Assembly: GCA_034520945.1 (NCBI GenBank)
Contig: JAXHNB010000006.1
Span: forward strand, 320,001 to 384,000
DNA length: 64,000 nt
Reading direction: 5' to 3'
DNA from: Trueperaceae bacterium
GTDB taxonomy: Bacteria > Deinococcota > Deinococci > Deinococcales > Trueperaceae
Shown here one piece after another: positions 33,901-39,900 of the stretch (position 1 is its first letter; every line of letters begins with the position of its first letter). The position numbers are program-made.

Positions 33901-36900
33901 CCACCGTTGGCCGAGATTCCGATCCGTCGCTCACGCCCTCCACCCGTTTCCGCAGGCTCGTCGCAGGCAAGCCTAGCCGATCACGGCAGGGAGGACGAGG
34001 GCGAGTGGCGAATGCAACGCGGCCGGGAGTGGGTCAGGGCATCTCGTTGCTGTCGGGGTTTCGGGACCGCGCCGTAGGTATCTCAGCACGCATTCGGTCG
34101 ATCAGCCACAGGTGCCGGTCGGTGTGCGCGACCACGGCCTCGAACGCCTGGATGGCGCGCAGGCGTGGCAGCGGCGTGACCGGCGAGGGAACGATCGCCC
34201 GACCCAGGTCGACGCCGCCGGCGCGCTCCAAGGTCGCGAGAAGCGCGTCCTGCGCCTCGTGGAAGGTGCCGGACGCGGCGTCCCGTCCCGCGACGGGCGG
34301 AGGTTGGACCTTCTTGGGCGAGGACATGCGCCGCCGGACGGGGGGCGCGATGGAGCGTACGACCAGGCGACCGATCGGCCCGCGCCGGTAGGGCCCCTCG
34401 CCCTTGGGGCCGCGTTCTCGGGCGCGCGCGATCACGCGCCTCAGTTCGCTGACGTACAGGTCGGTGAAGATCGCGACGTGCGCCAGGTGCTCTGCGATCG
34501 ACCATCGCGCGGGATCGGGGCGTCGTTGGAGCTGGTCGTCGGGTAGCTCGCCGAGGAGTGCGGCGACACGCGCATTCTGCGCCTCGACGTCCATGCGAAT
34601 GCGGTCGCGCTCGGAATCCAACGCGGGCTCCTCTCGAAGGGCGTTGGCACGAAGCATAGGACTGCGCTTGCCGGGGATGCAAGGCGCGCCTACGCCTCCG
34701 CGATGTCCGTGAACGCGAACTCCAGCCCCTTGAGCACCTGCTCGTAGTTCCACAACAGGCTGGACGCGCTGTTGGCGCCCAACCAGAGGTGGGCGATCGC
34801 GAAGCTGTAGCTGTCCTGTTCAGGAAGGTCGCTGAGGCGCATGCCTTCGCGTACCTGCAGGGCGATGCGGGTGCCGGGCACGCGCGCTTCGGCGGCGGCG
34901 ACCTCCTCGGGCGTGGGGCAGCGCGCCACCGTGGCGTCACGGAAGAACACGCGGTAGAAGAAGTTGGCCGACACCTTGAAGGCACCCTCTCGGCGCGGCA
35001 TCTCCGGGCGGCGGCCGAGGCCCAGGTCGACGCTGACCTGTTGGTGGCTCAGCCCGTCGACCTGCTCGAACAGGTCGCAGTGCCCCTGGGCGACGCGGGT
35101 GTTGATCTCGAGCAGCCAGATGCGGTCCTGCACCTCGTCCCAGAAGAACTCGATGTTGAACGCGCCGTGGTCGTAGCCGACGTGCTCCATCACACTTCGG
35201 GCCAGGTCGTGCATCCTGCGCTGCACCCGTTCGGGGAGGCGCGAGGGGTAGAGGTAGTAGGCGAAGCTGAGCACCTGCGGGTAGCGGATCGAGTCGATGA
35301 TGGCGTAGGAGGTCACCTCGCCGTCGTGCGCGTACCCCTCCAGGGTGCACTGCCGGCCGCCGATCATCTGTTCGGCCATACAGCAGTGTCCCTCGACCGC
35401 GCGGACGTGCTCCGGCAGGTCCGCTTGTCCCAGCACGTGGTTGAACGGCTCGGCAATGACGAGGATCTCGGCGCGGATCCGGGCCAACGCGTCGGCGAAA
35501 TCCTCGGGGCTGTCGATACGGAACCCCAACCGCGAGCCGGAGGATTTGATCGGCTTCACGAAGAAGGGGAACGAAAGCCCCGCTTGGCCGATCTTCTGTA
35601 GCGCGTCGTCGTCGAAGGGATCGAACCAGGTGAAGGTGGGGACGTGCTCCGGGATGACCTCGCGCTGGACGGTGCGACTCCAGTACTTGTGCTCGCACTT
35701 CAGCAGCGCCTCCAGCGACACCGAGCGCGTACCGAACGTACGGCACAGGATCGGCAGCATGGTGGAAACGGGGAAGTCCATGTAGCCGATGATGGCGTCG
35801 ATGGGCCCGTCGAAGGCCCGAAGCTGCCGCTCGGCGGTCTCCAGCATCGCCGCGATGTTCCAGTCGTCGGTGTCGTACACCGCGGCGGGGTCGATGACGC
35901 CGTGGAACGTGACGTCCTCCACGCCGCGGAGGCGCTGCAGGCGCGCGTGGTTCAGGTCGTTCAGGCCGATCACGAACACGTTCTTGGTCGCTGGTTCTTG
36001 GTTCGCTGCGTCCTTGCTCACTGATGCCTCCTCGAAGGCGTTCCTTCCGTGTGGCCGTGCACGTCACGATGCATCACCGCGGGCCCCTTACCCCACGGCC
36101 GGGGCTTGCCCGCGGAAGCTGCGCCCCTTGAGCCGCTGAATCGTGCCGGCGATGTCGTCGATGAGGAGGAGCAGCAGGTCGCCCTCGCTCGCCGCGTCCA
36201 TCGCCCGGCCGATCGCTTCGTGCTCGTCCATGACGATCTCGACCCGGGCCGTGCCGGGGTCCGCCGCGCCGCGCCGCATGAGCTCCGCGGCCTCACCGGC
36301 GGGCCGTCCGCGCGGGTCGGTCTCGCAGATGAACAGCTTCTGACACATCGCCGCCAGGTGCGTCCCCAACGCCGCGAGGTCCTCGTCGCGGCGGTTGCCC
36401 GGGGCACTGGCGACGCCGATGCAGCGCCCGGTCGTCAGTCCACGCACGAGGGGCGCAAGGGCCCTCATGGCGGGCACGTTGTGGCCGTAGTCGATCAGGC
36501 AGCGGATGCCGTCGGCTTCGATCAGGTTGGTGCGGCCCGGCAGTTGGGCCGGGGTGGGGTGGAAGGTCTGGAGCCCCATGGTGACGTCCCCCAGGGTGAG
36601 GCCCAGCGCGTACCCGGCGGCCGCCGCGGCCATGGCGTTTTGCACGTTGAAGGGCGCGTGCCCCTCGAAGGCGATGGGGACGTCCTCGACCTCGATCACC
36701 TCGGCCTCGACCTGACCCTGGCGCATGACGATCCGTCCGCCGGCGACGGTGAACACCGTGCCGTGGTCGGCGACGTGGGCATGCAGCGCCTCGGCGTCGG
36801 GGTTCATCGAGAAGTAGACGATCTTGCCGCGTGACCATTCGGTGCCCCACGCCATCACGCGCGGGTCGTCGGCGTTCAGAACGCAGGTGCCGCCGGGCTT

Positions 36901-39900
36901 GACCGCGTCCACGACGACCGTCTTGCAGCGGGCCAGTTCGTCGAGGGTGCGGATGTCGTGCTCGCCCAGGTGGTCGCTGTCGATGTTCAACAGGACGCCG
37001 ACGTCGCAGGCGTCGAAGCCCAGCCCGCGCCGCATGATGCCGCCCCGCGCGACCTCCAGCACCGCGTGGTCCACCGTCGGTTCCTTCAGCACCACCCCGG
37101 CCGCCATCGGGCCGGAGTAATCGCCGCGCATGATGACGTGGTTGTCGATCTCGATGGTGCCGGTGCAGGCCATGCCGACCTTGCGCCCCGCCTGGCGCAG
37201 CAGGTGCGCGATCAGGCGCGTGGTGGTCGTCTTGCCGTTGGTGCCGGTGATCGCGACGATCGGGATGCGCCCATCGTCCGCCGGGTCGGGGAACAACATG
37301 TCGACGACGGCCTCGCCGACGGGACGGCCGGTGCCGTGCGTGGGCGACATGTGCATGCGGAAGCCGGGACCGGCGTTGACCTCCACCACCCCGGCGGCCT
37401 GTTCCTCCAAGGGGCGGCTCAGCGTCTCGGCCAGCAGGTCGATGCCGATCACGTCCAGCCCGATCAGCCGTGCGATCCGTTCGGCGGCGTAGCGGACCTC
37501 GGGATGGACGTCGTCCGTGAGGTCCGTCGCGGTGCCGCCGGTGGAGATGTTGGCGGTGGACTTCAGCCACACGTACTGATCGTCCGGGATCACGTCGTCG
37601 AAGGTGAGGCCGGCCTGGGCGACCAAACGTTCCGTCTGCTCGTCCACGCCGATCTGGGTCAGCAGGTTCTCGTGCCCGACGCCCCGCCGCGGGTCGGCGT
37701 TGGTGGCCGTGATCAGCTCCCGCAACGTCGACCGGCCGTCCCCCACCACGTGGGCGGGGCGGCGGCGCGCGGCGGCGATCAGCGTGCCGTCGATGACCAA
37801 CAGCCGGTGGTCCTCGCCGTGCACGTAGCGTTCCACCACCACGGCGTCGTTGCGGCGCAAGGCGGCCTCGAAGCCGTCCCGAAGCTCCTCGGGCGTGGTG
37901 ATCCCGGTGGTCACGCCGCGCCCGTGATTGCCGGACAGCGGCTTGGTGACCACGGGGTAGCCGAGGTCCTCCGCGGCCGCCAGCACCTCCTCCCACGCGT
38001 AGCAGACATGCCCGCGGGGGACCGGGACGCCGGCCTCCCCGAGGATCTGCTTGGTCCATTCCTTGTCGTCGGCGATGGCGTGCCCGAGGATGTGGGTCTT
38101 GCACGTCACCGTGGCCTGGAAGCGCTGCTGCTTGGCGCCGTGCCCCAACTGGATGTAGCTGGTGTCGGTGGTGAGGCGGAAGTGGGGGATGCCACGCCGC
38201 GCGGCCGCCGCCACGATGGCGCCGGTCGAGGGCCCCAGCATGTTGGCGTCCCGTACCGCCTTGAGCCGGTCCACGGCGGCGTCGATGTCGAACTCGGCAC
38301 CGTCGAACATGGCCTGGACCAGCGCGACGGCCTCGGTGCCGGCGGCAAGCCCGCACGCCTCGTCGCGGTAGCGGTAGACGACGTGGTAGATGCCTTCGTC
38401 GTAACTGTCGACCGTCTTGCCGTAGCCGACCGAGAAGCCGATCGCATTCTGCAGCTCGATCGCGACGTGCTCGACCACGTGACCGGCGTACGTGCCGCGC
38501 TCCAGGCGCTGCAGAAACCCGCCCGGCACGCCGACGGAACAGCGGTGCTCGCCCAGGCCGGGCAGTAGCGCGGTCAGGCGTTCGCCCATGGCGGGCACCG
38601 TGTCGCTGGGGCGCTGGTCGAGGTCGCCGATGTCGAGCCGCATGTAGATGGCCTGGTAGCGGCTGTAGAAGTTGGGGCCCCGCAGGGCCCGATGCTCGAG
38701 GATGTTCATGTCGTCGGGGTCGTCATGCGGAATCTGCCTCCGAGGGCTGGGCGTAGGACGTGCCGGGATTCAGGAACGCGCGTGGATTCACGTCGTAGCC
38801 GTACCCGTGGGTGAGGGCGTGAACGATCACGTGTTCCACCGCCACCGGCTCCCCGACCTCCAGCTCAGCGATGTTGGAGTGTCGCAGGTCGCTGCTGTCG
38901 ACGATGATCACGATGCCTTCCCCGATGGCTTCGAGCACCGGGCCGGGGTGGATGATCACGCCGGCGTCTTCTCCCAGGCCCACCCCGACGTACTCGGGGT
39001 TGGTGGCGCCGACCTCCATCAGCCTCGTGAACCGCCCACGCCGCAGGAAGTGGCTGTCGATCACGAGCCCCCGCACGAAGCCGAGCCCGCCGCTCATCTT
39101 TACCGCGCCCTTGCGCAGGGCGTCCGCGGCGGCCCCGTCGTAGATCATGGTGGCCGACATGGCGGCCGCGCCGGCACTGGTGCCGGCTACCACCGCCCCA
39201 TCGGCGCGGCGGGCCCGGATGGCGTCCAGCATGGCCGAGCCGCCCAGAACGTTCGTCAGCCGCAACTGGTCGCCGCCGCTGATGAAGATCACGCCGCACG
39301 CTTGGAGCGTCGCCAGCTTCGTCTCGTCCTGCGCGTCGGTGCGGGACCGGACGTCGAGGAAGTGCACGCGGCTGGCCCCGAGATCCTGAAAGGTCTGGCG
39401 GTACCCGGCGAACACCTTGTCGGGGACGGTGCTGGCGGTGGTGATCACGCCGACCTCGACGGCGTCGGTCGAAGCGAGGCTCATCACGCGCTGCAGGACG
39501 GCCGAGCGCGAGGTCTTGTCCTCCGCGCCGCCGATGGCGATCAGGGCGCCCGGTTGGGGCGCGGCGTCGGGATTCACGGGACGCGGCATTCGCGGCGGCG
39601 ACGCTCCCCGGCGAACAGGAACCGACGCCCGGGCTCACGCGGTCCCGACCAGGGCGGCCGCGGAGGAGACGAGACGAACGAAGGTCGAATCATGCGTACC
39701 TCCGGCCGGAAACGCTGCGCTCGGGCACGCCCGATCGCATCCCCCCGGCCCATGCCTCGTCCTCCGCCTGGCTGTCGTGCGTGGACGACGCGTACGTGTC
39801 ATGCTACCGCGTCCAAGGCCGAATGGTTCGCATGGCGGTCGCAGCAGGTCCCTACTTGTGACGCGCAAGGAAGCGGCGCCGTCGTGGTCCGTTAGGCCGG

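Follow-up and report, generated by a model that had tools for sequence, protein, structure and literature searches.

A halophile-type cyanophycin operon with an uncharacterised ATP-grasp ligase suggests a variant of the storage polymer

Natural cyanophycin is taken to consist of aspartate and arginine (or lysine), and its synthetase, CphA1, is used in biopolymer production. In a Trueperaceae genome the genes for cyanophycinase and cyanophycin synthetase are followed by a third gene, for an ATP-grasp ligase, which raises the question of what such an enzyme does there. The survey's finding was that the ligase, together with a CocE/NonD hydrolase, forms an undescribed accessory arm of cyanophycin metabolism in halophiles. 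Literature searches indeed returned no description of the ligase. The hydrolase is not wholly new: PMC10206079 (2023) names a cocaine-esterase-like gene beside a cphA–cyanophycinase cluster; its main text mentions neither ATP-grasp nor CocE by name.

The operon in the Trueperaceae genome

The three genes are intact and lie on the minus strand of the window, the stretch of 64,000 nucleotides that was analysed, in the operon arrangement that had been reported. The first, cphB (38723–39589), encodes a halophile-type cyanophycinase of the S51 family (288 aa; TIGR02069, 227 bits against a cut-off of 126.6). Aligned with 3EN0 and 7UQV, it shows the Ser-His-Glu triad motifs and keeps the GTSAG nucleophile, DxHF and the equivalents of R178, R180 and R183; the Asp of the motif G(I/L)DED is replaced by Gly in most clade members. 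After a gap of 13 nt comes cphA1 (36088–38709), which encodes a cyanophycin synthetase of 873 aa from a divergent halophile clade (TIGR02068, 1115 bits against a cut-off of 850), and after a further 66 nt the ligase gene (34690–36021; 443 aa), with GAGGAGG upstream of its GTG start. The ligase matches PF13535 (E 3.6e-12), and no NCBIfam family exceeded its cut-off in the profile search.

Directly 3′ of the ligase gene, a DinB-family gene (34034–34657, minus strand; PF12867, E 1.4e-16) begins with an ATG 33 nt past the ligase stop, in the slot occupied by CocE in most relatives. It formed no recurring cluster among 80 ligase loci and is probably a passenger, not conserved in relatives. The GC3 of the operon (0.90–0.94) is that of its neighbours (0.89–0.93), so there is no compositional sign of recent transfer, and a scan for promoters and terminators found nothing exceeding shuffled sequence. 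In the host genome the operon has no CocE, IaaA, IadA, AstE/AspA-type or EctC gene alongside it (the EctC control matched nowhere), and a genome search gave no match for IaaA, IadA or AstE/AspA-type enzymes.

The host genome holds a second ligase copy (C10:163285–164559, 44% identity) and, on contig C1, a second CocE. The gene at C1:148669 (g0156) had been proposed as the CocE that matches the operon's ligase. It does belong to the same subfamily, but it falls outside the partner clade (support 86–88), with AU p values of 0.108 for grouping with the partners of the host's ligase subclade (A1, below) and 0.044 for grouping with Halomonas-type partners. Nor does identity mark it as a displaced partner, since its 49–58% is the same range as that between Roseobacter-type and Halomonas-type partners (51–57%). 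The orthologues of g0156 are linked to an SBP5 importer, and one genome that has them (G351) is without cphA. g0156 is a resident, ABC-importer-linked paralogue of the CocE subfamily, which may or may not be orthologous to the lost partner.

A ligase paired with a serine hydrolase

The main partner of the ligase is the CocE hydrolase, not cphA. CocE was found next to the ligase in 73 of 80 GTDB loci, as the survey had led us to expect, and for 118 of 138 ligase copies it lies no more than 2 kb away on the same strand. The figures claimed for cphA (51 of 77 loci) and cyanophycinase (44 of 77) came down to 36/80 and 30/80, and other neighbours are less rare than had been claimed (within 8 kb, MFS 18/80, IaaA 16/80, TelA 16/80 and IadA 10/80). 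Two sequences carry a natural ligase–CocE fusion of 1115 aa. A second apparent fusion (P0283) was not counted, as an in-frame deletion joins a cut ligase to mid-CocE and its cluster has a normal 453-aa ligase. The pair is often found in genomes without any cyanophycin genes. Ectoine synthesis was rejected as a general link, with EctC-like partners in one sub-cluster only and no EctC match in the host genome, the latter being weak because the control matched nowhere.

The Ser-Asp-His motifs are intact in 93 CocE partners. The CocE partner and g0156 score 226–253 bits with TIGR00976 (cut-off 66.3), with motifs for S124, D245 and H271. The partners thus share family membership and triad with cocaine esterase and alpha-amino-acid ester hydrolase (CocE/NonD, S15), but they are about 670 aa long, have a GISWGG nucleophile loop and are distant from the solved S15 members (E 2e-31).

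ATP-grasp amide ligases whose gene accompanies that of a hydrolase, or that are fused to one, are known from glutathionylspermidine synthetase/amidase and from the NAGGN synthase/peptidase cluster. To our knowledge these belong to other ligase and hydrolase families than the ligase–CocE pair, and neither is tied to cyanophycin. LdmS/HmrA of Staphylococcus (PMC9486568) likewise combines an ATP-grasp amide ligase with a hydrolase, again of other families and with no cyanophycin tie.

The ligase has the marks of an ATP-grasp enzyme in its fold, ATP lysines and ExN metal motif, and K112, K156, E217, E291, E305, N307 and R309 are invariant across 143 family sequences. A single-sequence PDB search gave no match, and an ESM Atlas search only unnamed ATP-grasp clusters. 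The predicted model (pLDDT 94.9) has the three-domain fold of the L-amino-acid ligases (LALs) and best matches the LAL BL00235 (3VOT; Z 31.1, rmsd 3.4, 387 aligned), followed by YwfE (Z 28.2), BacD (Z 27.9) and PurK (Z 27.6). With BL00235, YwfE/BacD and RizA it shares the fold (Z 27–31), the ATP and metal ligands and the catalytic arginine, at 12–18% identity; it differs in its own invariant DFP, CEHK and QDSYS motifs and at two LAL signatures. In LALs a glutamate holds the acyl donor by its alpha-amino group. By sequence alignment only, FEEGVYIAP of 3VOT aligns with SFAYYLYP of the ligase, placing F253 at the glutamate site, and the RIGG of the LAL RxGG loop is not matched but aligns with RVAQGH (RxxQSH in the family).

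It is very improbable, in our estimation, that the ligase instead activates bicarbonate or a small acid, with the chemistry of PurK, carbamoyl-phosphate synthetase or biotin carboxylase, to carbamoylate or carboxylate an amine whose product CocE hydrolyses. The sequence profiles do lean that way, urea carboxylase being the best match (E 1.4e-11, level with LAL at 5.2e-11), with CPS at 4e-8; the loop past R309 resembles the CPS NPRVSRS and not the LAL RIGG, R357 aligns with a conserved urea carboxylase arginine, and PurK is among the structural matches. However, LAL is the top structural match by 3 Z units, the QVEH glutamate is S/G at 313, TIGR02712 gives 30.7 bits against 1304, and the neighbours include no recurring biotin-carrier or carboxyltransferase cluster. 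We favour amide formation, which is probably the chemistry of this enzyme: the ligase would join a carboxylate without a free alpha-amino group to an amine at the expense of ATP, and the CocE hydrolase would split the amide again, making the two genes a synthetase/amidase module.

A cyanophycin synthetase clade tied to the ligase

The host CphA is 68–85% identical to the halophile copies, close to the 69–85% reported. A profile search found PF18921, ATP-grasp and Mur ligase domains, corresponding to the N, G and M domains. Like the solved CphA1s (Synechocystis UTEX2470, Trichodesmium and a third; 7LG5, 7WAC, 7LGN; PMC9427784 and PMC9262961), the clade has these domains, the primer-making motif Cx19HxxEH (C57, H77, E80 and H81 in the host) and the aspartate- and ATP-binding residues; in the alignment the host keeps the equivalents of His267, Arg309, Arg323, Asn394, Ser396 and Arg458, which are aspartate-binding or catalytic in the G domain. 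What sets the clade apart is a shorter M-lid loop and the absence of Glu215, Asp523 and Asp776, which are A211, G517 and N772 in the host. Position 211 is S/G/A/T in 48/48 clade members and E/D in 16/16 ordinary CphAs; position 517 is G in 48/48 and position 772 is N in 47/48, against D in all 16 ordinary enzymes at both. The 48 form one clade, so these changes count as one event.

Glu215 touches the Arg side chain in CphA1, and E215A removed most activity in TeCphA1 and half in SuCphA1 (PMC9427784). We found no role stated for Asp523 or Asp776 in the CphA1 literature searched; both lost aspartates are M-domain residues, and in an alignment with MurE the C-terminal motifs GxR and xDxR fall at positions 772 and 797. 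The joint loss of Glu215 and the M-domain aspartates across the clade appears, from sequence, to be new here. Against an altered side chain stands Asp214, one helix turn from 211 and present in 47/48 clade CphAs but in 1/16 ordinary ones, which could stand in for Glu215 and so give an ordinary Arg polymer; Tyr531 and Asp585 are likewise the clade's own.

Across 774 genomes from four families, halophile-type CphA (68% or more identical) was present in 68, all 68 of which carry a ligase-family gene (64/64 when four centre genomes are left out), whereas none of the 21 genomes with an ordinary CphA (41–46%) does. The host ligase falls in a tree subclade of 30 (A1; support 99) whose members come from several phyla and adjoin cphA in every case; CocE has gone from the locus eight times within A1, cphA never. 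The co-occurrence, the adjacency and the shifted arginine pocket of CphA support a functional tie between the ligase family and one CphA clade that is stronger than could be drawn from neighbourhood alone.

Other observations count against such coupling. The ligase family is present in 147 of the 774 genomes, 79 of them without halophile-type CphA, and 33 of 39 cphA-less ligase genomes also have no S51 match. Locus L174 has an ordinary-type CphA with all acids kept and a ligase adjoining its cphB, and the Halospina CphA, which nests among Roseobacteraceae, has no adjacent ligase and co-occurs only with 44–47% ligases. The ligase is found in 102 of 201 Halomonadaceae genomes. On the side of the coupling, halophile-type CphA and ligase are there unlinked yet in the same genome in 31 of 56 cases, but these may trace to a small number of lineages with a nearly core ligase. 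Contrary to its claimed absence from 100 other Deinococcales, the family is present in 10 of 120 other host-family genomes, and three congeners among the 120 carry the same cph-linked copy; in metagenomes, the C10 paralogue as query yielded one weak match among 85 candidates.

These distributions bear on a somewhat doubtful alternative, in which the cyanophycin is ordinary and ligase and CocE make and break a soluble conjugate (an osmolyte or storage amide), a common use in nitrogen or solute storage in salt habitats being the sole reason why they travel with cph. The cassette is found on its own in many settings, near integrases, LigD/Ku, DUF892, TreT, OsmC and SBP5 importers; 24 of 80 Halomonadaceae with a close ligase have no cphA, and among 44 genomes with a cph-free locus, 18 lack a CphA that passes the cut-off. 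The intact primer motif and the possible replacement of Glu215 by Asp214 also fit. An independent module would not, however, predict the split by CphA type, the constancy of cphA in A1, the change of ligase position 353 from K to E/N in that subclade, or the coordinated loss of acids in CphA. The ligase keeps its tie to one CphA clade, but the ligase–CocE pair is self-standing in many genomes without cphA or cyanophycinase and so is more than an accessory arm of cyanophycin metabolism; the dependence runs from the halophile CphA to the module.

A non-standard cyanophycin

The loss of arginine-gripping acids from halophile CphA, and its constant company of the ligase in the genomes searched, suggest an undescribed variant of the storage polymer. 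We put at roughly 0.4 the probability that the ligase/amidase module provides units for, or edits, a non-standard cyanophycin. One cyanophycin synthetase clade would have become coupled to the module; its backbone site would still add aspartate, whilst its side-chain sites would no longer be shaped for plain arginine. The product would be poly-Asp bearing a unit X, either supplied by the ligase or finished by it on the chain. CphB would then free beta-Asp-X, a promiscuous IaaA or IadA would free X, and the CocE enzyme would split it. Within this scheme the altered side chain is evenly balanced between true and false, and the ligase as its source falls a little short of that. EctC-like fusions and betaine-type importers near related CocEs hint at an N-acylated diamino acid or osmolyte conjugate, which is our leading, if unlikely, guess at X.

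The cphB–cphA1 clusters with iaaA or iadA in PMC10206079 have the same three activities as those relatives of the operon that carry IaaA or IadA; the host operon departs from them in its extra ligase, with CocE in relatives, and in a genome without recognisable IaaA or IadA. An IaaA of the kind in our loci best matches 8DQM in the PDB (E 4.6e-85), the RhIaaA crystallised in that study, which has no Arg/Lys preference. An improbable alternative is that the ligase makes, and CocE cleaves, beta-Asp-Arg-type dipeptides or short primers, for recycling or priming, with CocE as a cryptic isoaspartyl dipeptidase. A beta-carboxyl donor would fit the missing LAL glutamate, the host genome gave no match to IaaA, IadA or AstE/AspA-type enzymes, and the same source suggests such a role for its cocaine-esterase-like neighbour. 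Yet IaaA (16) or IadA (10) is already present in 26 of the 36 cph-containing loci, nearly always beside CocE too; most cassettes have no cph genes nearby; and CphA1 does not use dipeptides (PMC9427784). With Cx19HxxEH retained, this CphA should also prime itself, for which reason a supply of primers by the ligase was rejected.

The ligase–CocE cassette is common in halophiles and has no assigned function. The polymer of the widespread CphA clade might, though we think this rather unlikely, be poly-aspartate with a ligase-made unit in place of plain arginine, a stress solute of the ligase–CocE pair being banked in an osmotically silent form. The cassette offers a testable identity for the cocaine-esterase-like neighbour of PMC10206079, and Halomonas, Roseivivax, Fodinicurvata and Salinisphaera are the relevant cultured strains. 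If the side-chain pocket does differ in a natural CphA clade, cyanophycin biology and the biopolymer toolbox would both be the wider for it.

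The operon and its host genome

The three genes lie on the minus strand in the order cphB (38723-39589), cphA (36088-38709) and the gene for a 443-aa ATP-grasp ligase (34690-36021), separated by 13 and 66 nt and free of internal stops, as the survey's finding had described. The cph genes score over their NCBIfam cut-offs, and in the profile comparison the ligase matched no named family, PF13535 being its sole match. A DinB-family gene follows it, at the place that a CocE/NonD hydrolase gene takes in most relatives.

The nearest named homologues are from Trueperaceae. The host genome (completeness 97%, contamination 5%) has a second ligase copy, 44% identical (C10:163285-164559; L002:9253-10563 in locus numbering), which follows an MFS gene and converges with one for a C69 dipeptidase, with neither CocE nor cph gene nearby; a further C69 homologue is at C8:103164-104276. 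Two CocE/NonD genes, 40% identical to each other, stand in tandem at G000:C1:148672-152928 (locus L001), with a TAXI-type TRAP transporter on one side and an SBP5 ABC importer on the other. The window also holds a lipoprotein-like GH114 glycoside hydrolase gene whose linker is a long run of Pro-Glu repeats (27294-28727, plus strand) and, at about 42650-43900 (minus), an apparently broken nitrilase (carbon-nitrogen hydrolase) gene with pieces in different frames, adjoining an FAD-linked oxidase and a BTAD-ATPase-TPR regulator.

The ligase and its CocE partner

Of 574 confirmed GTDB stretches, the 80 best were compared: CocE neighbours the ligase in 73, cphA in 36 and cphB in 30; two of the seven loci without CocE stop at a contig edge. 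The association with CocE is confirmed; the 51 and 44 of 77 loci previously reported for cphA and cphB are not, and the next most common neighbour, said to occur in five loci within 4 kb, is exceeded within 8 kb by MFS (18), IaaA (16), TelA (16) and IadA (10). When all ligase copies aligned over 300 residues or more were counted, and CocE only if it shared their strand and lay no more than 2 kb away, 118/138 copies had one: 78/88 in the 80 loci, 16/20 among distant copies from Halomonadaceae (a subset of 51 listed), 6/9 in the host family, and 18/21 from 18 Oleiphilaceae regions (of 44 matches) and two others. Two sequences encode a 1115-aa fusion of whole ligase and whole CocE. In Salinisphaera, Arhodomonas, Halospina and one actinobacterium, the cassette is extended by an ArgE/DapE-type M20 enzyme and an EctC-like cupin, the latter usually fused to a second ligase. 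Given the adjacency counts, the fusion and these cassette variants, ligase and CocE together make up the primary unit.

Tandem double ligases form nine clusters. Such proteins are about 880 aa long (P0125, P0275-P0282) and adjacent ligase pairs also occur (L055, L072), a possible sign of two ligations in succession or of a heterodimer. The clusters with M20 deacylase and cupin are L059, L061, L062, L068, L077, L078 and L185, with protein P0129; their cupins, mostly fused to a second ligase and annotated 'ectoine synthase', seem to lack one metal histidine, and in the fusions the last histidine ligand of EctC is replaced. There is also a second ATP-grasp/CocE pairing: at L116, L117, L118, L185 and L187, CocE pairs adjoin a different ATP-grasp protein of 341-344 aa (D-Ala-D-Ala ligase C-terminal match), some of these loci also holding an M14 peptidase and a RimK-type Zn protease. 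Locus L074, a cph-ligase-CocE locus in a MAG labelled Bacillaceae, has TRAP genes closest to alphaproteobacterial ones, possibly through mis-binning or transfer.

The structure model of the ligase (pLDDT 94.9) is most similar to L-amino-acid ligases, with 3VOT first (Z 31.1, rmsd 3.4, 387 aligned), followed by YwfE (28.2), BacD (27.9) and PurK (27.6). ATP and metal residues are invariant among 143 family members, so the enzyme is probably active. In sequence alignment, however, F253 replaces the glutamate of the 3VOT motif FEEGVYIAP, and the RIGG loop of 3VOT corresponds to RVAQGH. In YwfE this glutamate holds the donor's alpha-amino group, and the phenylalanine therefore suggests a donor without a free alpha-amine. 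Bicarbonate chemistry by the ligase we judge improbable. Position 353, lysine in 81-100% of the other groups, carries E or N in the subclade whose members adjoin cph genes; it shares a strand with conserved R357 and, from strand alternation, would face the pocket.

Apparent dependence of halophile-type CphA on the ligase

Genome groups carry family names inferred from named centre genomes, with Rhodobacteraceae and Oleiphilaceae as presumed GTDB placements. The 201 Halomonadaceae genomes include 80 with a close ligase (62-68%), 22 with distant copies only and 56 with cphA; all 56 of the last have the close ligase, adjacent in 25 and unlinked in 31. In the host family (n=121), the close ligase is found in four genomes including our own, the same four that carry halophile-type CphA (at least 68% identical to the window's), and 11 others with 42-46% CphA have no ligase; the ligase is thus present in other Deinococcales, where it had been reported missing. 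Rhodobacteraceae (n=251) likewise have ligase and halophile-type CphA in the same four genomes and nine ordinary CphAs without ligase. The four halophile-type CphAs of Oleiphilaceae (n=201) all have 44-47% ligases elsewhere in the genome, and one ordinary CphA has none. Pooled over 774 genomes, of which 147 have the ligase, it accompanies 68/68 halophile-type against 0/21 ordinary CphAs, counts from a sample of genomes that are partly related, hence non-independent, and in some cases incomplete.

The reverse direction fails, as 79/147 ligase genomes lack halophile-type CphA. Where a ligase locus was free of cphA (44 genomes), cphA was elsewhere in 26 and none was over cut-off in 18; of the 39 genomes with a ligase but no cphA, 33 had no S51 match either. 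An independent stress cassette standing beside ordinary cyanophycin we consider somewhat unlikely; the split of 68/68 against 0/21 speaks against it.

In a FastTree tree of 146 rows the window ligase falls in a 30-row subclade (A1; support 99) spanning Trueperaceae, Desulfohalobiaceae, Rhodovibrionaceae, Geminicoccaceae and Roseobacteraceae, where cphA adjoins 30/30 and CocE 22/30; cph-linked Salinisphaera ligases sit in another clade. The 48 halophile-type CphAs fall into a single clade (support 100, on a branch of 0.56), and its branching order is largely parallel to that of the ligases, Halospina excepted. The Halospina cphA (L178; G040:C3:405082-407694) nests among Roseobacteraceae sequences and has cphB and iaaA but no ligase next to it; part of an operon was likely transferred.

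The C1 CocE gene g0156 had been proposed as the matching partner. In the tree it is not part of the clade that the ligase-adjacent CocEs form (support 86-88) but clusters with three congener orthologues, each of which immediately precedes an SBP5 importer protein or is fused to it. One orthologue is in a genome without cphA or close ligase (G351), where it runs on into the binding protein in one 1210-aa frame (L157). In constrained trees (40 of 122 rows), placement with A1 partners was not rejected (AU p 0.108) and placement with Halomonas-type partners marginally was (p 0.044); g0156, at most a candidate partner, could be a functional stand-in. Related unlinked CocEs adjoin BCCT, OpuAC-type, SSF and SBP5 importers; for some the neighbour is a distinct ATP-grasp protein of 341 aa.

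The CphA pocket and a possible role for the cassette

Compared with 7LG5, 7WAC, 7LGN and the residues named in PMC9427784, the window CphA has an intact aspartate-adding site, and it keeps the primer motif given in PMC9262961. The differences lie elsewhere. Counting sequences with at least 700 aligned residues, the Glu215 position is S/G/A/T in 48/48 halophile-type CphAs against E/D in 16/16 ordinary ones, Asp523 is G in 48/48 against D in 16/16, and Asp776 is N in 47/48 against D in 16/16 (A211, G517 and N772 in the window protein). The next M-lid loop is shortened with loss of one Asp, a call that depends on the alignment. The last two altered motifs align with C-terminal motifs of MurE, and in Mur ligases such motifs bind the incoming amino acid. 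Glu215 itself touches the terminal Arg side chain, according to PMC9427784.

Several observations count against an altered pocket. PMC9427784 has E215A in SuCphA1 halving activity, not abolishing it; Asp214, typical of the clade, may substitute for Glu215; on the tree the residue changes count as a single event; and at L174 a ligase adjoins the cphB that goes with one ordinary-type CphA.

Searches of open-access main texts found neither the ligase nor a CphA clade altered in this way described, in line with the earlier statement; for CocE that statement does not fully hold, since PMC10206079 proposes as a possible dipeptidase a cocaine-esterase-like gene, perhaps this CocE, that neighbours a cluster of cphA and cyanophycinase. 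Recycling of dipeptide or primer, with CocE as an isoaspartyl dipeptidase, would agree with that naming, but we judge it improbable. New here are the direction of dependence, the CphA pocket changes, the ligase-CocE fusion and the correction on g0156.

IaaA, IadA and AstE/AspA-type enzymes had no match in the host genome, leaving the last degradation step there unexplained under every reading. Our preferred reading, to which we give a probability of roughly 0.4, is that the synthetase/amidase cassette serves a CphA clade making non-standard cyanophycin. Either the product of the cassette or its activity on the chain would serve the halophile-type CphA, which would then make the non-standard polymer; CphB, together with IaaA and IadA, whose promiscuity is described in PMC10206079, would dismantle it.
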